Source: a virus. From it: DNA of 64,000 nucleotides. Below, in pieces: positions 1,523 through 58,009 of this stretch. Made by a program: the position numbers and the translations under genes. Location: positions 29,246-93,245 of IMG/VR virus record IMGVR_UViG_3300043395_000420; one strand, 5' to 3'. The notes below the pieces were generated by a model. That model ran no database searches and was not told the DNA's origin. It saw only the letters and a list, made by a program, of their open reading frames with translations. Position 1 is the first letter of the stretch. Each line of letters begins with the position of its first letter.

Positions 1523-4500
1523 TATATACTACAACTTAAAATATCATTTAATATGTCATTAGTTACTTCGGTGTCTGATACTACCTGGTCTCTTTGAACT
1601 TTTTCCGACATCTCTACAGAACCTTTAGCAAATACTCGTGGTAAAGAATTAGGATTTATATAACCAAATGCATCATACAGCCTCTCAGACAAATATACGA
1701 AAGTTTTAGGTGCGGATTGTGGATTTGCCGGTACATTTTCTTCAACAGAACCTATAACCATTCCATTTTCTTCCCATCTATTAATCATAGACTGACCCAT
1801 ACCTCTAAAATTAAATCTTAATACTTTGTCAGGATTAAGTTTCATTTTTTCTACTAGGGCCTGAATAGCAGCATCTATCTGTTGAATGTTATAGTTATAC
1901 TCTTCTTCAGTTTCTTCTACTAGTAAACCTGAAGGTGTAATAGTATTAGTTGTTTTATTCAATGTTCCCTTTGGTTTTCCTGTTTTAGGATCTACGGGTA
2001 TTGCTAAGAACTTAGTAGGTATTCCAAAATAGTTATCTGGTCCTAGACCTGCTAAAACGGCTGATGTTTTATTTAGATCTGTAGTATTAGCAGTACGGCC
2101 AGGTTTTGCCATTACGGTATCAGTTACAAATATTACATTAGGATTAGCCTCTTTAATCTTTTGAATATCAACAGGTTTAAGATTATCAGGAGTTAATGTA
2201 AAATCATATACAGGTATGCCGGTTCCGTTTTGTAAACCTACCATGAACCCATTAGGATTAGATGCTTGTGTAGGTTGAGTAATAGTAGACTTTGATACTA
2301 TTTGCTGGTTAGTACTTACAGAAATTTGAGTAGGTTTAGACCAAGTACCAATAACTTGTCCATCTACTGTAATTTCAGAGTAATTATATCCAGCTTGTTT
2401 CATAGCATCATATAATCTTTTTTCTCCTGTGTTATAGTCACTAGCGTCAGTATAGGCTTTGTTATCTGTAAGAATAGTAGCACCTGCTTCAACAGCCTTA
2501 ATAGCTTCAGCTATTGTTCTATCTTGTTGAGTTTTTTGCTGTTCTTCAGTACCTCTTTTACCACCAATAGATACAAAAATTACATCATTAACTGAATAGT
2601 TACCTGTATTAGCAAAATTACCAGCTTGTTCTCTATATAAATCTGTAGAACTGCCCTTTATACCTTCTCCAAATCCTATATATTGTGTAGCTATGCTGGC
2701 TTTAATAACTGCTTTTTTATCAGCAGCTTGTATAGGTTTTACCGTAAATATATTTTTCTTAGTAAATTTATCACCTGTACTTACAGGAGCTTGTGATTGA
2801 GATGGTTGTACTACTTCAAATTCTATAGCATAAGGATAATTACCCACATGTCTATCTGTAACAGATTTAACCCAACCTTCTTTTTGCCAAGTAGCATCTT
2901 GATACTCTTGTGTAAAAGGAGATACTTTAGTAATTCTAGTATAAACTTGTCTACCTGTATTATCAGTCATCCGGATAACTTTACCAACTAAGTCTTCAAT
3001 TTTAGAAAGATTATAGTCTTTCATCATTCTAGAAACATCAGTCTTAGCTCTAGTAGTTCTAGTTCTATCTCCAGAAATAATAAGATCCATGGTAGATTTA
3101 TCTTTAAACTGTGGTTGCATAGTTCTTGTTTTCCACACATCTCCTTCTTTATATTTAGAACCATCGGCAAAATTTTGTTCAATAGCTGGTAAACTATCAG
3201 CTACAATAAACTCATTACTTACAGGTTCTTGTGCAGGTTCTTCACCAACAATTTCTGGAGTACCTAATTTTTGACTAGTAGCAATATAGACCATATCAGT
3301 TGCTCTAGATACAGCCACATATTTTAATTCTTGCTGTACGTTTTTGTCTTTGAAACTGTTAATAGTATCATCTAATATCAATACTTTAGTATAAGTACCT
3401 CCTTGAGATTTGTGAATAGTATGAGCATACCCGTAGTCAAAAGTTTGATTAAATAAAGTTTTACCATTTTGAATAACAGGTTTCATTGAAGTTATGGCAT
3501 TTTCATAGTCAGATGCTTTTTGAAAATATGATGCTGCAGCACGAATATCTCCATCTTTTTTTAACCTAGCCCCTGCTTCTCTTAAATCTTTAATAGTTTT
3601 TGATAATCTTATTAGTTTAGAATCATCATCATTAACATCTGCTACAAATATTACTTCTGGTTTTTCATCGGCTTTTCCTAATAGATTTTGAATAGTTACC
3701 TTATAACCTTTAAATTCAACTTTATCACCCAATAAATCTAAAGTTACAGTAGAAGGTTTTATATCTAATACTTCATAGTCACCACTATTCATTATTTTAT
3801 ACTGACCTGTTCTATAATTTTTATCAAAGTTACTTCTTCCCATTATCAGGTCTCCGACAACAAGTTGCTGTTGAGCAGCATCTCCAAAAAGTAATTTTCT
3901 AACTTCTTTATTTTTAGCAGTTACTACAGCATTAGTAGCAGATAAAATTCTAAAGTATAACTTATTTTTTGCAAACTCTGGACTTAAGAAGTTTTCTTTA
4001 ACAGCTTCGTTTACAAATGTATTGTTATCACCATAAACTACTCCTATACCATTAACTACTTTTGTTTTATAGTTAAGTTCTTTACCATTACGCAAATTAG
4101 TAGACTCTTCTAAAATAGGGTTGTCTCCTGTTCTTTCTACCTTAGTTAATTGCAACTGGGTTCCTTTATCAAAAACTTTTGATAGGTTATCTTGTCCTAC
4201 AGGTCTTAACTGTGCAGGATCTCCCATGTATATAATTTTAAGATTAGAATTTTTCTTTTTTTCTTCTTGAATAAAAGCAAATAAACCATCAGCAACCATT
4301 GATGCTTCGTCTAGTATAAGCACGGTAGACTCGTCTGGTTTTAATACACCTTTATTTTGTTTAGCAAAGTTTAGTTTTGCAAGATCATACTCTTCTTCAA
4401 AATTAAAATCAGGATTTAAACCAAACAATGAATGTAATGTATACACTCTTACATCTGGATTTTTAAGTTTTGTTACAGCATTTGCTCTATTAGTAGGAGA

Positions 4501-31600: not shown

Positions 31601-34600
31601 AATATAATGCGCATATTTATTAACAGGGTCATAATCCGGATGATGAGTTTTCATATAATCCTGAACACTTTGATTATATAACTCATTTGTTTCTTGTTCT
31701 AATCTTTTAATTTGTTCTCTGATAGGTTGCTGTTCTTCCCACGTGTATTTGCTTAATGATTCTCCTAATTCACGCGCCTTTTTCATTTTTTCCTGATAAG
31801 GTTGAGTCTTTAACCATTCAGATAAATTTTTACTAGTACCTTCTTTTTTAATTAAAAAATCAAAAGCATCTGTTGCCTGATTTGATCTTTCTGTTCTTAA
31901 TAGTTTTTTATCATATGTTAGAGGGGGAAATAATTCATCCATTTTAGCCTGTTTTACTGCCGCAAACTCATCCATAAAATCATCTAGTACATCGTCAGGT
32001 ACAAATTCACCATCAGCAACACCATATTTTTTTCTTAAATCTTTTTGTAATTTTGGAACCTCATCTAAAAATGTATTTAATCTATCATATTTTTCTTGGC
32101 TTATACTACCTCTTTCTAGATAATGTTTAAGATCGTCTCTTGTAACACCTCTTAAAGTTTCTAAACTAACTCCTCTTTCACCAGCTTTAGGTAAATATTC
32201 ATCATAGTACTCGGGTCTATTTTCAGTTATCCAGTCTTGTCTATTAGCTGATGAAAAGTTTGTAGGTCGTTTTGCTTTAACAATATAACCGTTACCATAA
32301 GTGTATCCTTCAGCTGTACGCATTGAGTTACTTGTATACAAACCTTCTAAACCCCTACCTAAGTAATGATTATCTAATGATGCTCTTCCATATCCTGTAC
32401 TTATAGGAATATGCGTTGCCATATATTCAGCTGCACCTTGAGGGTTATTTATATAATCTATACCATTTTTTTCAAAATTGTCTGTAATGTTTTTCCATAG
32501 TTCTTTACCTTTTTCAGGTCCGTATTCTCTAACTAATGCTTTTTGTAATTCATCCCAATTAGTACTTATACCTCTTACAAAAGTATTATGTCTATTCATT
32601 AAACCTCTAATAGTTCTATTAGTTAGTTCATCTGATTGTGCTATTCTTTCTAGGTTAGCAGGAAGTTCGTATCCATATTGATTTGCAAATTCTTGTAACT
32701 TTTGAAGATCTTCTAAATTTTTAGATGCATTTGCAGAAGAACTTGTCACATTTTTTAACAGGGTTTCTGTAGTAATAAATTTACCGGTTTGTTTTGCACC
32801 ACTTATAGCAGCTTTTCCTATACCTACACCAACAAAGTCTAATGCATTTAGTCCTGTTGCAATTGCTGCATCTGTAATATTTGATGTTGTAGGATTATCA
32901 ACAGCTTTAGATATTATATTATATGTATGTGGTAATTGAGTAATTCCGTATCCTGTACCTAATGCAGCTATTGTATTACCTACTGTAATTCCAGGAACTG
33001 CAGAACCTGCTACAATCATTGGTGCTTCTAATGATCCTATTACAGCTGGTGCCGCAAATGGTGCTGCTAATACTCCAGTTGCTAATGCTGACTTCTGTAC
33101 AAAATCTTTTTGATTATCAATAATGTACTGTCTAGCTTTTTCAGGAGTCATTTTTGTTACGTCCTTTTTTATCTTACCAACTATTTTTTTATCTTGCTGA
33201 TCCCATGTACGTTTATCTTTAGATAAAGTTTTAGTAGTCTGATCTACTTCAGTTTGTTGATCAGGTTTTAAAAAATGTAAAGTTCTAGTATGTGGATTAT
33301 ACCCACCTTTTCCTTCATAAACTAGTTTACGAATTTGTGCGTCATATCTATCATCTCCAGAATACATTGCACGATTATCAAACCATTCAGGATTATCTTT
33401 ATAAGTAAGAACTTGATTAGGATATGTATTAAGGTCTACTTGTCCTTTGTCTTGATATTTTACAAGTCCCCCATACTGTTTCTGAATTTTATTCTTTTCA
33501 TTGTAGTAATCTTTTTCTTCAGACTCTACAGCTCTCATAACATATTTCTTATTTACATTATCCCAGACAGCTTCATAGTTTGGTTGCTGACCTGTTCTAT
33601 TGCCATAATTAAGTTGACCAATGTTTTGAGATTTTCTAAAAGTCTTACCCAGACCTATATTAGTATCAATGTTCTTTAAACTAGGTACTGTTACTGGTAA
33701 TCTTTTAAGAGGTAATGGTTCTATCCTGTTTAATGTTTCATCATCTACTATTCCTAGTCCAATATTTGGATCAAAATTAGGATCTCCTGTCCATACTGGT
33801 ATTGTTTTAGGAGCAGCATATCTAGGACTCCATGCTCTACCATCCCAGTAAACTCCTACAGGTCTAATTTTAGGATGTACAACATCTGCTGATGTATGAT
33901 ACATAATATTATCATCAGTAAGTCCTAAAGATTTGTAATACTTAATAAGGTCTCTGTCTTCTTTTGTGACAAAGTAGTTATCAGTAAACATATCTTTTTC
34001 ATTTATAAAGTCTTTAGCCATTGGGCCGTAACTTTCTAAACCTGGAACAACTCTTGGAATTCTATTATTTTTTAAATTTTTTACACTAAAGTCTGAAATA
34101 GGTGGTGCATTTTTTATACTTTTTCTTGCAGCTGTGTATTGGTTACTAGGAGCATTTTTATTCATTAACCTATTCTGCATAACCATAGCTTGATTCAAAA
34201 TAGTACTATCTTGATATGCAGCAAATGCTTTTAAGAACTCATCTTTATCATCAATATATCGTGGTACTTGTCCTTTCTTCTGATATTTAGTAAGTCCCCC
34301 GTATTGCTTTTTAATTTTATTTTTCTCATTATAGTAATTTTGTTCTTCTGGTTCTATTTCCTGCATAGTCCATTTTTTATTTGTGTTGTCCCATACGGCT
34401 TTATAATTTGGTTGTTGACCCGTACGATTTCCATAATTTAATTGACCTATACTTTGAGAATCAAATCTACCTTTACCTAAACCTATTCTTGTATCAATTG
34501 ATCTTAACTGTGGTACAGTTACTGGTAATTTAGTTAGTGGTTTAGATTCTATTCTTTCTAATGGCGGTTCAAATACTACAGGTTGAGTTGGTTTTTTATA

Positions 34601-42014: not shown

Positions 42015-42593
42015 TTAAATATTAAATTCGTTATATTTTTCTGCATACTCTTTCTTACGTTTTTCAACTTCTCTTTGGTATGAATGATCTCTGAAGTATG
42101 TAGATAGTTTTATCTTAGGGTCAATTTCTATAAATATTTTCCAGTTTTCAGAAAAAGCACGAGAACTATCTTTTTTAAACTGTCTGGCCGGTCTGAATAT
42201 CCATAGATTATTGTCTACTATTTTATATTTTACAGAAGAGTTACTGTAGAATATCTTACCTAATCTTCCATCACTATTCCAGTTTTTAAAAGATATTTTC
42301 TGTTTATGTTTGGTAGACATGAGCATGTCAATAGTATTTGCACTATTTTTACATACTCCTAAAAATAAATAACCTATTCCTTGTGGAAGTTCTACACCCT
42401 CTCTATTCTCACATACGTATGCTCTTACATAGTCATTAAAGTCTTTTATAAGTTTACTAATATCTTTCTTGACCATTTCTTTAGTAGCAGGAACCTTTTC
42501 ATTGAGTTCTTTCATAAACTTATCATTGATTGGTTCATGACGGTCTGGTCTAAATCTGGGTTTAGTTCTATCTATGTCTGAAAACTTACGCAT
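42015..42593 (-). CDS. IHF/HU-like DNA-binding protein (crAss-like)
   Basis: 192 aa, basic. Helix followed by GVELPQGIGYLF and later WIFRPARQFK, resembling the HU/IHF fold. Conserved position in the crAss-like tail block. Confidence 0.65.
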   Translation of the reverse strand: MRKFSDIDRTKPRFRPDRHEPINDKFMKELNEKVPATKEMVKKDISKLIKDFNDYVRAYVCENREGVELPQGIGYLFLGVCKNSANTIDMLMSTKHKQKISFKNWNSDGRLGKIFYSNSSVKYKIVDNNLWIFRPARQFKKDSSRAFSENWKIFIEIDPKIKLSTYFRDHSYQREVEKRKKEYAEKYNEFNI

Positions 42594-42646
42594 ACTCTTA
42601 TTACAATTTACAAAATTTATCTGAGGTTTAAAAGATACTTCTTATG

Positions 42647-42654
42647 CAAATATA
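42647..42654 (-). promoter_or_regulatory. Bacteroidota-type -7 promoter element TATATTTG
   Basis: Exact TAnnTTTG match directly downstream of a terminator and upstream of the IHF-like gene. Confidence 0.5.
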
Positions 42655-42687
42655 ATAAAGAACCCCAGAATTTCTCCTGGGGCCTTT
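42655..42687 (-). terminator. Intrinsic terminator
   Basis: Minus strand GGCCCCAGGA-GAAA-TTCTGGGGTT followed by CTTTATT. The GNRA tetraloop and G-U pairs favour the minus strand. Confidence 0.8.
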
Positions 42688-42720
42688 CTTGTAGGGTCAC
42701 TAAACCAACAAAGTGATCTA
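42655..42720 (-). ncRNA. Candidate 3'-UTR structured RNA (UUGUUGGUUU-loop hairpin plus terminator)
   Basis: UAGAUCACU-UUGUUGGUUU-AGUGACCCUA hairpin starts right after the stop codon at 42721. Its loop is complementary to leader motifs at 47607, 55019 and 57987. Confidence 0.45.
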
Positions 42721-43272
42721 TCAAGTTAAACCTAAAGTAGTTACAGCAATAGTTGCACTAATACTTTGTCCTAGATTGCAGTGGGTTGTTACTTTAAAAT
42801 AGTATTCTGTTGCTGCAGTTAGTGTAGAAAAAGTATAACTATTAGTATTTATAGGGGTAGCCGTTGACCAACTATCTCCTTGATTTGTGGATATACTAAC
42901 TGAATAGTAATTAGCATCTGTATTTTCCCAAGATAAAGTAATTGCTGTAGTTCCTATATAACTAGGATGCAACTTCAAAACGGGAGTACATAAGCTATCA
43001 TATGCATTAAGTGACATAAACTGATATACATTTTCTAAACTCATACCGGGTGTAAGATTGAACTGCATATATTCTGCAGGATTCATGTTTATACCAAAGT
43101 TTATAATTGTATAGTTTCTATGAATTACACATGTATCTTGTATAGTTTCGTAGCACGGAGTTGGATCCGGGCATAACGTATTAGGAGGACATGAATATGT
43201 CATAGGTGTAGTAAAAGGAGTATCCTTACAACTACATGTACTATTTGATGTTTTACAAGTTGAACAAGCCAT
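42721..43272 (-). CDS. Cys-rich structural protein with C-terminal fibronectin type III-like domain
   Basis: 183 aa with N-terminal CxxC/CPDPTPC..CV. C-terminal TAITLSW...YSV...YTFSTLTAATEYYFKV is an FN3 pattern. Confidence 0.7.
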   Translation of the reverse strand: MACSTCKTSNSTCSCKDTPFTTPMTYSCPPNTLCPDPTPCYETIQDTCVIHRNYTIINFGINMNPAEYMQFNLTPGMSLENVYQFMSLNAYDSLCTPVLKLHPSYIGTTAITLSWENTDANYYSVSISTNQGDSWSTATPINTNSYTFSTLTAATEYYFKVTTHCNLGQSISATIAVTTLGLT

Positions 43273-47449: not shown

Positions 47450-47604
47450 TTCTTTTTAGTTTCTAAATTAAAAGGTTCTGGTTTACTTGAAGGTTTAATT
47501 CTTTGTAAACCGGATATACATTTAGTACATCCTGAACGACCATCTGCTGTTGTTCTTTTTTGACATCCGCAGCTCATTGCTGCTCCACAGTTACTACATT
47601 TCAT
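47446..47604 (-). CDS. Small Cys-rich (possible zinc-binding) protein, 52 aa
   Basis: Below the ORF-track cutoff: MKCSNCGAAMSCGCQKRTTADGRSGCTKCISGLQRIKPSSKPEPFNLETKKK. Fills the gap, has an ATGA overlap with the next gene and an AAACCAACAAAT leader. Confidence 0.75.
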   Translation of the reverse strand: MKCSNCGAAMSCGCQKRTTADGRSGCTKCISGLQRIKPSSKPEPFNLETKKK

Positions 47605-47624
47605 ATTTGTTGGTTTTTAAAGGT

Positions 47625-48182: not shown

Positions 48183-48194
48183 ATTACTAAGTTA

Positions 48195-48202
48195 CAAATA
48201 TA
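48195..48202 (-). promoter_or_regulatory. Bacteroidota-type -7 promoter element TATATTTG
   Basis: TAnnTTTG match just downstream of a terminator, 12 nt before the ATG at 48182. Confidence 0.5.
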
Positions 48203-48214
48203 TTATGTAAAAAT

Positions 48215-48253
48215 AAAAAAGGGAAGGGAATTTTTGTTATCCCTTCCCTTTTT
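48215..48253 (-). terminator. Intrinsic terminator (possibly bidirectional)
   Basis: AAAAAGGGAAGGGA-10 nt-TCCCTTCCCTTTTTT: perfect stem with T-tracts on both strands, after the 446-aa gene. Confidence 0.88.
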
Positions 48254-54000: not shown

Positions 54001-55017
54001 CTAATTATTCCAGAACTTTTCTACTTTTTTAGTTATGTCAAGTAAAGTTTGTTCATTCAATGGATTTTTAATATACTCTACAACTTCTGCAATATTACGA
54101 CCCATCATTGTACCGGTAGTTTTTTCATAGATCATACCGTCAGCTTTTGTTACAAGAATCTTATAATAAGTAGCATCTTTAACAATTGCTTTTAGTTTTA
54201 AGGTTTCCATATCTAAACCAACAGCATCTAAGAAAGATTTTGATGCTCTTGTAGAGTTTTGTTCAGATCCTTCTCCCATAATATACTTATCCATGTTATC
54301 ATAAAGAATATCATTAGGAGTACTCTTTTTGTATAAACTACTTGCAGGATCTACAACTTTTGCTACATAGAATAACTTATTAGTATTCTTATCATATAGT
54401 TTTTGTAATTCAGCAATTGCTTTATTACGAATCTTTTTACCTTCTGTTTTAGTAGATACAGTTTCTTCCATCTTATCTAAATAAAACTTGGGTGCACGTG
54501 CGCGTGATTTAGCATCTTCATAACTTTTAGAAATAATACTAAATCCTCCTGCTTCAATAGCACATAACTTAATAAGATCATATGGATCTTTTACCGGATC
54601 TAAAAATATAGGTTCATTACCACAACGCATTGTGATCTTAGACCAAAATTCTCCGTTATCAGGTTTAAGTAATTTTACTTTATTCCAAAATTCTGGATCA
54701 GAAGGATCTACCATATTTGATGCAAGATCCCTTTCTAATTCAGATACTAATGTTCTAATTTCTTTAACACGTGCTTCTCGCATATCAATATCTTTAATGA
54801 GTTTAATCTCAGGAGCAAACTCATTAAGACCTGTTATATAACGTTTAACACCATTGTTTTCAATACAAGCAAGTTGTTCTTCATGATATACTCCATCATA
54901 TAGAGACATACCATATTTTTCTAGACCCATATTTGATACACGACTATCAAAATATGGTTTAACGGTCACGGGACCTCTTTTTTTAGCCGCGTGGGCTTCT
55001 ACAAATGTAAATTCCAT
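54001..55017 (-). CDS. Conserved crAss-like protein downstream of MCP
   Basis: 338 aa with RYITGL, EFWSK, LDP..DP.DLI and PKFYL motifs; conserved position after the MCP. Confidence 0.7.
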   Translation of the reverse strand: MEFTFVEAHAAKKRGPVTVKPYFDSRVSNMGLEKYGMSLYDGVYHEEQLACIENNGVKRYITGLNEFAPEIKLIKDIDMREARVKEIRTLVSELERDLASNMVDPSDPEFWNKVKLLKPDNGEFWSKITMRCGNEPIFLDPVKDPYDLIKLCAIEAGGFSIISKSYEDAKSRARAPKFYLDKMEETVSTKTEGKKIRNKAIAELQKLYDKNTNKLFYVAKVVDPASSLYKKSTPNDILYDNMDKYIMGEGSEQNSTRASKSFLDAVGLDMETLKLKAIVKDATYYKILVTKADGMIYEKTTGTMMGRNIAEVVEYIKNPLNEQTLLDITKKVEKFWNN

Positions 55018-55018
55018 T

Positions 55019-55036
55019 TTGTTGGTTTATTGGTTT
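55019..55036 (-). promoter_or_regulatory. Tandem AAACCAA leader motif before the start codon
   Basis: TAAACCAATAAACCAACAAA-ATG; the same motif precedes the ATGs at 47604 and 57984. Confidence 0.55.
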
Positions 55037-55044
55037 ATGTTTGA

Positions 55045-55052
55045 CAAATATA
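55045..55052 (-). promoter_or_regulatory. Bacteroidota-type -7 promoter element TATATTTG
   Basis: TAnnTTTG immediately after the U-tract of the MCP terminator. Confidence 0.55.
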
Positions 55053-55054
55053 GT

Positions 55055-55084
55055 AAAAAAGGGGAGAGTTTAACACCCTCCCCC
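55055..55084 (-). terminator. Intrinsic terminator after MCP
   Basis: GGGGAGGGT-GTTAA-ACTCTCCCC-TTTTTT on the minus strand. Confidence 0.88.
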
Positions 55085-55102
55085 GTTTTACAGTTATAAA
55101 GA

Positions 55103-56731: not shown

Positions 56732-56754
56732 TTTTTATTTATTTATTAAAAGGG

Positions 56755-57984
56755 TTATCTTTTCCAAAAATTATTACTTCTAGGAATACGACGTTGTGAT
56801 GTTTCTTCTTTTTCAATCACAGGTGCCGCACTCTGTAGTTTTGCTTGTTCGGTTTTTAACTGCCTAACTGTTTTTTCTACAGCAGCAGTTTTACCAATCT
56901 CGCGTATTTTTGCTTTATAGGTATCAGGGTCAGCTAATAACCATAAAGCTTCTGCTATTAAATCATGTCTTGGTTCAACATACTGATACTTTTCTAACAA
57001 GTGCCCTAACATATTTGTAGGGTTACCTGACATAGAAGGAAAGTTTGCTTGAACTAATCCAGCATATAATAAGCCTTGTGTACGTTTATCAAGTTTTACA
57101 CCATTAAGTTCTCCAGGAGAAAGGGTATCATAAATGTTTTGCATATAATGTTCCGCAGCAGCTTTTTGTTGTCTTCTCAACTCTTCTTGCTGCGCAACTT
57201 TTCTTGCAACCATAGATTCCTGCATCTTATCCAATTTTGGTTTATAAGATTCAGCCTTTATATCCAGTTTACCTCGGTCTTTTAAATCTTCAATTTCTTC
57301 TTCAATGTCTTCATCACTTCCCCAGTTAGTAGCACGTAAGTACTCACGTACTATTTGTGCTTGACCAGATGGATCTGAAACATCTAAGTTTCTTACTTCC
57401 TCAACTTGTGCCAATGCCTTAAATAAACCTTTAAGGTCTTGACCTCCGTCTGCTACATATTTTGCAGCATACTGAAGTTCTTGAGGTAGAGATTCAAAAA
57501 ACTCTATTGGTGTTTCTTGACGGATCTTTTGTTCCTTCTCTTGCATATTTGCTTCAAGAAGTTCTTCAAAATCCTTTACACTGTACTCTTCAATAGGTTT
57601 GTCATCATCAAATGGTATAATCTGGCCTTTTTCAATAAGTTTGTTAACCAGTTCTACCATTCCACTTTTCTCTAACTTAGGACGTCCTGATGGTTTAGTA
57701 TCTTCTTTAATACTAGGATCAGAAAAGTCGTCATTAGGATCTGCATCTTTAATGATGTCCTCTATTGTTACCTTTTCCGTTGACTCATCATCTGAGTCGT
57801 TGTCAATAAAAGAAAGATCTACATCTGGCTTAGTAAAGATGTTAGGCTTTACTTCTGCCTTCTTATCTGATCCTTCAGGAAGCATCACGTTTTCTGCTCC
57901 CGGGGTTCCTAGAATTTCATCTAGGTTTAGTTCTACTTGCTCTACCGAGGTAGTATCAGTAGTACTGTTTTCATTCATGCTCAT
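56755..57984 (-). CDS. Acidic scaffold-like protein between portal and MCP
   Basis: 409 aa with a very Asp/Glu-rich N-terminus and helical/coiled-coil C-terminus; conserved position. Confidence 0.65.
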   Translation of the reverse strand: MSMNENSTTDTTSVEQVELNLDEILGTPGAENVMLPEGSDKKAEVKPNIFTKPDVDLSFIDNDSDDESTEKVTIEDIIKDADPNDDFSDPSIKEDTKPSGRPKLEKSGMVELVNKLIEKGQIIPFDDDKPIEEYSVKDFEELLEANMQEKEQKIRQETPIEFFESLPQELQYAAKYVADGGQDLKGLFKALAQVEEVRNLDVSDPSGQAQIVREYLRATNWGSDEDIEEEIEDLKDRGKLDIKAESYKPKLDKMQESMVARKVAQQEELRRQQKAAAEHYMQNIYDTLSPGELNGVKLDKRTQGLLYAGLVQANFPSMSGNPTNMLGHLLEKYQYVEPRHDLIAEALWLLADPDTYKAKIREIGKTAAVEKTVRQLKTEQAKLQSAAPVIEKEETSQRRIPRSNNFWKR

Positions 57985-58009
57985 AGTGTTGGTTTAAAAG
58001 CTACATTAA

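Follow-up and report, generated by a model that had tools for sequence, protein, structure and literature searches.

A conserved hairpin in the mRNA 3' untranslated region of crAss-like phages as a candidate base-pairing regulator of head-gene translation

Results

The window, i.e., the whole stretch of 64,000 nucleotides analyzed here, originates from a 93-kb IMG/VR record, and its gene content is that of a crAss-like phage with every gene on the minus strand. The genes are arranged in the order terminase-like gene, portal-size gene, 409-aa gene, major capsid gene (PHROG major head protein match, E=1e-29), and 338-aa gene, followed by tiny basic proteins, a block of Cys-rich virion proteins, and giant cargo proteins, one of which has 4419 aa. 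The locus of interest is the end of one of the late operons, whose last gene in the open reading frame (ORF) list (42721..43272, minus strand) encodes a 183-aa protein with an Fn3 domain (Pfam fn3, E=1.4e-6) and ends with a TGA stop codon at 42723-42721. From 1 to 5 nt after this stop begins the stem of a hairpin (42697..42716, minus strand; sequence and RNA fold), made of the 5-bp stem UCACU/AGUGA (42716-42712 with 42701-42697) and of the 10-nt loop UUGUUGGUUU, read from the sequence at 42711-42702 of the same strand. A weaker extension of the lower stem predicted by RNA folding (about 42689-42725, minus strand) takes in the stop codon. Loop and closing pair together form the segment UUUGUUGGUUUA (42701..42712, minus strand), which is nearly invariant across the family and is referred to below as the seed. 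Further downstream lies an intrinsic terminator (42650..42684, minus strand; terminator scan and fold), with a 10-pair stem at 42684-42661, a GAAA loop, and a U-rich tail, the stem being followed by CTTTATTATA; the whole module folds at -25.4 kcal/mol. The terminator tail overlaps a TATATTTG box (42647..42654, minus strand), a -7 element of the type TAnnTTTG, which we take to be the Bacteroidota promoter consensus, and this box is the probable promoter of the next gene (42593..42015). A sequence-only reading of this DNA had described a hairpin directly 3' of the stop codon at 42721 followed by a GAAA-tetraloop terminator, and sequence, fold, and terminator scan all agree with that description. 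The U tracts of terminators also merge directly into TATATTTG boxes on the minus strand at 48183-48230 and 55040-55090, and such terminator-promoter junctions at three operon boundaries (42.65, 48.2, and 55.05 kb) provide a simple map of the late transcription units.

The 12-mer TTTGTTGGTTTA (42712-42701), formed by the loop and its closing pair, matches without exception the reverse complement of TAAACCAACAAA, a segment located at 55029-55018, immediately 5' of the ATG at 55017. The 12-nt loop match claimed from the letters is therefore exact as a complementarity, but the loop proper has 10 nt and the match counts the closing U-A pair. Three complementary leaders had been pointed out before the ATGs at 55017, 57984, and 47604, and all three were found there; their predicted duplexes with the loop (about -10 to -12 kcal/mol) are the top three of those computed for 79 genes. 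The leader of the 338-aa gene that follows the major capsid gene, UAAACCAAUAAACCAACAAA-AUG (55018..55037, minus strand), has two tandem copies of the motif and gives the best predicted duplex of the genome (-12.3 kcal/mol); the motif is conserved in the leaders of 45 distinct relatives, usually in two copies. The leader UAAACCAACACU-AUG (57985..57996, minus strand), with TAAACCAACA directly before the ATG at 57984, belongs to the acidic, scaffold-like 409-aa gene located between portal and capsid genes; its duplex (-10.4 kcal/mol) is the third best in the genome, and AACCAAC occurs in nearly all of 59 distinct relatives' leaders before this gene. The last one, AAAACCAACAAA(U)-AUG (47606..47617, minus strand; -12.2 kcal/mol), lies inside the hairpin's own operon, with no promoter nearby, and precedes a 51-aa Cys-rich ORF (47604..47452). 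This ORF is shorter than the usual ORF cutoff, being missed by ordinary lists, shows a zinc-ribbon-like CxxC...CxC...CxxC pattern, and overlaps the start of the next gene (ATGA), and its orthologues of 45 to 65 aa in relatives also have the leader motif.

Neither the 338-aa nor the 409-aa protein had a match in PHROGs, Pfam, or PDB, searched by sequence and by profile. For the former (54001-55017), the AlphaFold model (m0d9e9f848ff5) has a pLDDT of 66.8 and is confident only in its C-terminal half (about residues 190-338). Foldseek returned no match with E at or below 0.001 for this model, the top rows (RecA small C-terminal domain, E about 0.3 over 60 residues) being too weak to interpret.

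The motif AAACCAAC occurs 8 times in the window for 2.5 expected, a count reached by 1 of 100 shuffles. Its other plus-strand copies (13853 and 54215) fall within ORFs, so the hairpin does hold the sole intergenic inverted copy, as had been proposed. These within-window statistics alone are modest, and it is the comparative sequence data that raise the loop-leader match above chance. A small opposite-strand ORF started by the inverted motif was considered and rejected: a GTG follows the motif by 3 nt in the window, but variation of the 5' stem arms leaves the relatives without a consistent start codon at this place.

An IMG/VR search with the 192-aa protein flanking the hairpin gave no close relatives. 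Loci were gathered via the neighboring 222-aa virion protein, which yielded 11 relatives and then, by profile search, at least 320 in IMG/VR. The first 11 loci (222-aa protein 45-62% identical) all have in the syntenic gap a hairpin with the loop UUUGUUGGUUU, with differing stems and non-homologous terminators. Among 80 related IMG/VR loci sampled via the same protein (44-62% identical), 78 have the hairpin and terminator on the gene strand, one per genome, with TTGTTGGT in the hairpin in 70 of them and close loop variants in 8; in the remaining 2, the upstream sequence is too short to judge. The loop is thus nearly invariant across the family (UUUGUUGGUUU), and columns T17-T24 of the MAFFT alignment of 54 distinct sequences (A2) are fully invariant. 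The same 54 distinct hairpins have at least 25 different stem sequences.

The covariance model (CM) realigned 77 matches, and in the CM-based alignment all 6 stem pairs vary on both sides, 70.8% of the stem cells being paired (55.9% after shuffling and 30-58% in slid registers). The stem covariation score is 0.496 versus 0.259 for shuffled alignments and was reached in 0 of 500 shuffles. An alignment-independent arm-swap control, in which the loop was kept open and only arm-to-arm pairs were permitted, gave a mean of -7.2 kcal/mol for native arms, 54/54 being at or below -4, and a mean of -2.3 kcal/mol for chimeras carrying the 3' arm of another lineage, 22% being at or below -4 (Mann-Whitney p=2e-28, the sequences not being independent). 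RNAalifold found no consensus pairs on either the MAFFT alignment (A2) or the CM alignment (A3), which we attribute to the short stem, lineage-dependent register shifts, and the large gapped loop; hence, the structural case rests on the per-sequence folds, the pair counts, and the arm-swap control. The window hairpin matches covariance model R1 at 28.9 bits, and each genome has one confident copy, the weaker matches being the antisense strands of the leaders. Conservation of the loop together with covariation of the stem had been set as a check on the initial idea; the loop is indeed kept in distant relatives, and the stems covary.

In about 90% of 55 sequences, the loop core is preceded by a stop codon at a distance of 7 to 21 nt, the upstream gene depending on the lineage; the median distance from stop codon to U tract is 70 nt, and every relative has a non-homologous terminator at the equivalent place. 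A TAnnTTTG box was found within 130 nt upstream of the hairpin in only 1 of the 55 sequences. We therefore rejected an independent hairpin promoter and consider the hairpin, with its single inverted copy of the motif, as part of the 3' untranslated region (3' UTR) and not as a separate gene, in agreement with the location first proposed for it. In about half of the relatives, such a box lies 55 to 100 nt past the loop, just after the terminator. Rfam 15 gave no match for the whole window at gathering thresholds and, for 42560-42800 with permissive filters, only PK-repZ at 14.7 bits (cutoff of 44 bits, E=0.47), and a literature search on the motif strings and on small RNAs (sRNAs) of crAss-like phages found no relevant description. 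The hairpin is a real, family-wide conserved RNA motif absent from Rfam and from the literature that we found.

Enrichment of the motif near start codons, the other check that had been set, was also observed. AACCAAC is present in 29 of 741 upstream windows (25 nt) of six genomes, where unrelated 7-mers of the same composition occur in 0 to 6 windows and the antisense GTTGGTT occurs in 0 of 741. About 4% of the phage genes carry it, with a core set orthologous across genomes, and its enrichment is specific to the stretch just 5' of start codons, 3 to 6 nt before the ATG with a spacer that peaks at 3 to 4 nt. When the most enriched upstream 6-mers were listed independently of the loop, a single one contained a C, and this word is the reverse complement of the loop. 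A TAnnTTTG box lies within 70 nt of only 10 of the 29 AACCAAC sites, at a variable spacing of 10 to 32 nt, and the 19 sites that have no box include some inside operons; thus, AACCAAC tracks the start codon and not the promoter. Leader loci were further examined at 80 loci found via the capsid protein (84-99% identical), for which IMG/VR has at least 600 matches. Both neighbors of the capsid gene nearly always have a conserved AACCAAC a short distance 5' of the ATG (about 100 distinct leaders), and the gene after the capsid gene typically has two copies about 15 nt apart in these 80 capsid loci. A conserved leader of another kind precedes the capsid gene: in the window (56732-56760, minus strand), it is (A)TAACCCTT(A/T)AATAAATAAAAA immediately 5' of the ATG, a sequence not related to AACCAAC and retained in relatives (L014-L093, just upstream of position 3501) whose capsid proteins are 84-99% identical.

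The motif is not a Shine-Dalgarno sequence, since direct reading of AAACCAAC shows no complementarity to the CCUCC carried by the 16S rRNA 3' tail. In five Bacteroidota metagenome-assembled genomes (MAGs), AACCAAC-N2-6-ATG was no commoner than a backwards control; AACCAAC is therefore not a general host signal, and we rejected a host-wide translation signal. The three window leaders are unstructured (z-scores about 0), which led us also to reject activation through the opening of a leader structure.

Loop and leaders change together in one clade, on which the case for compensatory coevolution rests. The orthologous targets rank first in duplex prediction in G001, G002, G005, and G009. Good duplexes are only modestly more frequent than with shuffled loops because U-rich loops pair fairly well with any A-rich leader, and the loop is nearly invariant, so that covariation with the leaders can be tested in only a few variant lineages. 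The loop of the clade G008/G009/G034 is UAUAUUGGUUUU instead of UUUGUUGGUUU. In G009, the leader of the scaffold-like gene, AAAACCAAUAUAA, is a 13-nt perfect complement of the clade loop, and all three orthologous targets have AACCAAU. On the capsid tree, this clade falls among lineages with AACCAAU leaders and the canonical loop (G-U wobble), and the neighboring lineage G054 has CCAAUAUA leaders with the canonical loop, i.e., a G-U wobble and one mismatch. With the leaders already altered in G054, the two substitutions in the G008/G009/G034 loop thus fall precisely where they restore Watson-Crick pairing; given two random substitutions, the naive chance that both would be restoring is about 0.002. 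Among the other loop variants, GGUAUA in G003 and UAGUUGGUUA in G004/G006 are essentially uncompensated by the leaders, and UAAGUUGG in G010 is compensated at 1 of 2 positions. Many upper-clade genomes combine the canonical loop with AACCAAA leaders (mismatch) and can pair only via a 7- to 8-nt core, AAACCAA/UUGGUUU. The conservation of the loop 5' half is not fully explained by these upper-clade leaders, and something else may constrain it. An IMG/VR scan for the variant loop TTTTATATTGGTTTT gave 117 mostly chance matches and no new clade members, the pattern being too AT-rich. Altogether, these sequence comparisons make a functional loop-leader pairing likely, although not proven.

Discussion

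The hairpin is best read, on comparative sequence grounds, as a new family of phage base-pairing regulatory RNA in an mRNA 3' UTR. We propose a model in which the 3' end of a late mRNA exposes in a hairpin loop a seed that pairs with translation initiation regions and most likely damps their translation, a reading to which we give slightly better than even odds (probability of about 0.55). The regulatory module would be the last ~65 to 70 nt of a late structural operon mRNA, namely, the stop codon, the hairpin, a short spacer, and the terminator, and its sole sequence-constrained part would be the hairpin loop UUUGUUGGUUU. As an exposed seed, the loop would form 8 to 12 bp with AAACCAAC(AAA), at about -10 to -12 kcal/mol. 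The sites lie 3 to 6 nt 5' of the AUG, in A-rich leaders free of structure, and belong to a few late genes, namely, the two neighbors of the capsid gene (the scaffold-like gene on its 5' side and, with two tandem sites, the 338-aa gene on its 3' side) and the tiny Cys-rich gene. The regulator would thus be the tail of the operon for Cys-rich outer virion proteins, with one target inside this operon and the others on head-gene transcripts. The predicted duplex covers -4 to -15, the ribosome docking region, and there is no leader structure to open; hence, repression or timing would be the most likely effect, translation of the head genes being lowered or timed by the buildup of the transcript that carries the hairpin or of a stable 3' fragment left by its decay. 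We infer the accumulation of such an RNA, its action in trans, and its repressive effect from these sequence features, the direction of the effect on the targets being conjectural. Of the regulator reading as first formulated, the conserved loop, the covarying stems, and the start-site motif speak for a pairing RNA, and its adaptor branch is disfavored, as discussed below.

An alternative that we regard as rather improbable is that the hairpin is a protein-binding RNA element, e.g., for boxB/nut-like antitermination, or a processing or stability signal, the leader complementarity being incidental or titrating. In its nut-like version, a phage or host protein would read the loop and control read-through of the adjacent terminator into the cargo/virion-RNA polymerase operon. 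The lambda boxB layout is a hairpin with a conserved loop and a structure-only stem before a terminator, and the phage element shares all of this, including its place directly before a terminator at an operon boundary. Protein contact would also fit better than pairing the invariance of the loop 5' half in clades whose leaders are unmatched. It leaves unexplained, however, why the exact reverse complement of the loop is the most specific non-AT motif at start codons, why the top duplexes fall on orthologous genes in several genomes, and why a double compensatory change occurred in the G008/G009 clade. Moreover, a nut-like site would be expected to keep a boxA-like linear element, and none is conserved beside the hairpin, where only the loop columns are invariant (A2, 54 sequences) and a single sub-clade has the GACTGACA stretch that follows the hairpin; nor is read-through needed in the about half of relatives that have a fresh promoter after the terminator. 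Recognition at the DNA level is, in our opinion, very improbable. Here, double-stranded AAACCAACAAA would be bound in either orientation by a phage DNA-binding protein, such as a late transcription factor, or would act as a signal for packaging or replication, and the inverted repeat at 42.7 kb would belong to a compound terminator. A duplex motif does look alike to a protein in both orientations, and several copies lie downstream of TAnnTTTG boxes, but the distance is fixed to the ATG and not to promoter boxes (19/29 sites have none), leaders carry the sense orientation only (29 versus 0), and the inverted copy always sits in the loop of a covarying hairpin. In addition, the common C-to-U variants of the leaders keep G-U pairing, which is meaningful for RNA and not for DNA recognition.

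A positive role appears quite improbable to us. AACCAAC would be Shine-Dalgarno-like, and the hairpin RNA would serve as a surrogate "anti-SD" or adaptor for host ribosomes that ignore Shine-Dalgarno sequences, or as an mRNA stabilizer. The motif core at about -5 to -12 has a Shine-Dalgarno-like placement, the duplex strength is within the range of SD:anti-SD pairing, the marked genes (scaffold-like and capsid-associated) are probably needed in high copy, and the lack of enrichment before ATG in the five Bacteroidota MAGs makes the motif a phage-private signal. Carried further, hairpin RNA and AACCAAC leaders would constitute a phage-private orthogonal ribosome-binding system, in which a trans-acting "anti-leader" RNA marks head-assembly mRNAs for preferential or switch-like initiation in a host that hides its anti-SD, a scenario that we find slightly less probable still. 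Stem, spacer, and terminator vary freely, however, leaving no conserved second surface for docking of a ribosome or factor, and with only the loop conserved, the adaptor in a phage-specific initiation system that had been suggested as one option is disfavored. The leaders are already open, with nothing to activate by unfolding, the phage bS21 or a similar ribosome modifier is absent from the five genomes searched, and the capsid gene, whose product is the most highly needed, has another leader.

The module resembles several known systems. In enterobacteria, sRNAs of the class of CpxQ, SroC, DapZ, and MicL are derived from mRNA 3' ends, share the intrinsic terminator of the mRNA, and carry a short conserved seed. 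The phage element is likewise flanked by a stop codon and by the terminator of its mRNA, with no promoter of its own, and it has an invariant loop, conserved AACCAAC sites at orthologous starts, and one compensatory clade, comparable to a short conserved seed with several targets in initiation regions. It differs in that the candidate seed sits in a hairpin loop and not in a linear stretch, in that a crAss-like phage of lytic type encodes it and would direct it at structural genes of its own, and in that it has no sequence or Rfam relation to this class. To our knowledge, Bacteroidota, the presumed host phylum, also lack Hfq, a further difference from the enterobacterial sRNA systems. RNAs of the RNAIII/RsaE type of Staphylococcus likewise direct a loop-exposed seed against the ribosome-binding region of several mRNAs, with a motif that recurs at the targets; their C-rich loops target the universal G-rich SD, whereas the phage loop would target a private, non-SD AACCAAC. 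The c4 RNAs of phages P1/P7 and the CI RNA of P4 are cut from a longer phage transcript and pair at or near ribosome-binding sites. They are similar in being phage encoded and in pairing exposed loops with short sites in phage mRNAs, but they control immunity or anti-repressor genes of temperate elements within the same transcript, whereas in the crAss-like phages, which have no lysogeny genes in view, the candidate targets serve head assembly and mostly lie on transcripts other than that of the hairpin, and there is no sequence similarity. The lambda nut site (boxB) also consists of a small hairpin, conserved in sequence in its loop and in structure only along its stem, and also precedes a terminator where two operons meet; the phage loop, in contrast, is 10 to 16 nt long and not a GNRA-like pentaloop, has no conserved boxA-like partner, and has conserved antisense partners at start codons.

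The TAnnTTTG-type boxes and MAG binning suggest that the hosts are freshwater Bacteroidota. Capsid-bearing contigs are binned in MAGs of many phyla, 5 of 16 being Bacteroidota, including Chitinophagaceae from freshwater lakes; bins of the Lake Mendota type are among those named. Contigs of the family (L370-L385) occur in MAGs labeled Micavibrio, Fluviibacter, Campylobacteraceae, Clostridium, Rickettsiales, Pseudomonadales, Chitinophagaceae, and Bacteroidia, and these mixed-phylum assignments are evidently binning carry-over and not prophages. A DNA search of cultured phages with the hairpin locus gave no match, and protein searches reached only distant relatives, i.e., FpV4-like and Cellulophaga phages at about 28% and the Leptolyngbya phage Lbo-JY46. 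FpV4, a distant crAss-like Flavobacterium phage, has neither the hairpin nor the leader motif, a joint absence that speaks for a link between the two. Lbo-JY46 (PP438436.1), the closest cultured phage by capsid protein (28%), has at 33670-33735 a hairpin TATAAA-TTTGTTGGTTG-TTTATA (loop UUUGUUGGUUG) followed by a terminator in a 410-nt intergenic region, which by its sequence is a possible distant instance. TAnnTTTG/TTTG-type boxes precede its structural genes, which is odd for the listed cyanobacterial host. Leader-motif enrichment was not found in Lbo-JY46, and despite its look-alike hairpin and terminator, we did not retain this phage as a model.

Bacteroidota translation proceeds largely without Shine-Dalgarno pairing, and the present element may bear on how their phages tune translation in this setting. 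The loop and leader constitute a compact pair, an invariant 11-nt loop and a 7- to 11-nt leader motif on defined, conserved head genes, which hundreds of phage genomes from the environment share (at least 320 and at least 600 IMG/VR matches), and we know of no regulatory RNA described for crAss-like phages. If the pairing is functional, it would represent a new family of phage regulatory RNA, in which one structural operon regulates another via its mRNA 3' end, and could serve as an orthogonal translation-control part for Bacteroidota. If the loop binds a protein instead, it would mark an unknown control point at the boundary between the virion-shell operon and the cargo/RNA polymerase operon.

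Two features of the surroundings of the loop may be added. In one sub-clade (L136, L138, L146-L154, L166, L196, and L198), the spacer from hairpin to terminator retains the sequence G(A/G)(C/T)TGACA(A/G), which can pair with the loop 5' half (UUUGU with ACAAG), a pairing that RNAfold favors in a few sequences; from its sequence, the stretch could reflect seed masking or shared ancestry. A general pairing of the loop with a downstream (U)GACAAG was rejected, as it is present in this sub-clade only. On the other side of the loop, nearly all lineages have the stop codon of the upstream gene inside the lower stem or immediately 5' of it (42689-42725 in the window), even though the upstream gene differs. 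This arrangement may reflect genome economy or functional coupling, and because of this position, a terminating ribosome would melt the 5' arm of the hairpin.
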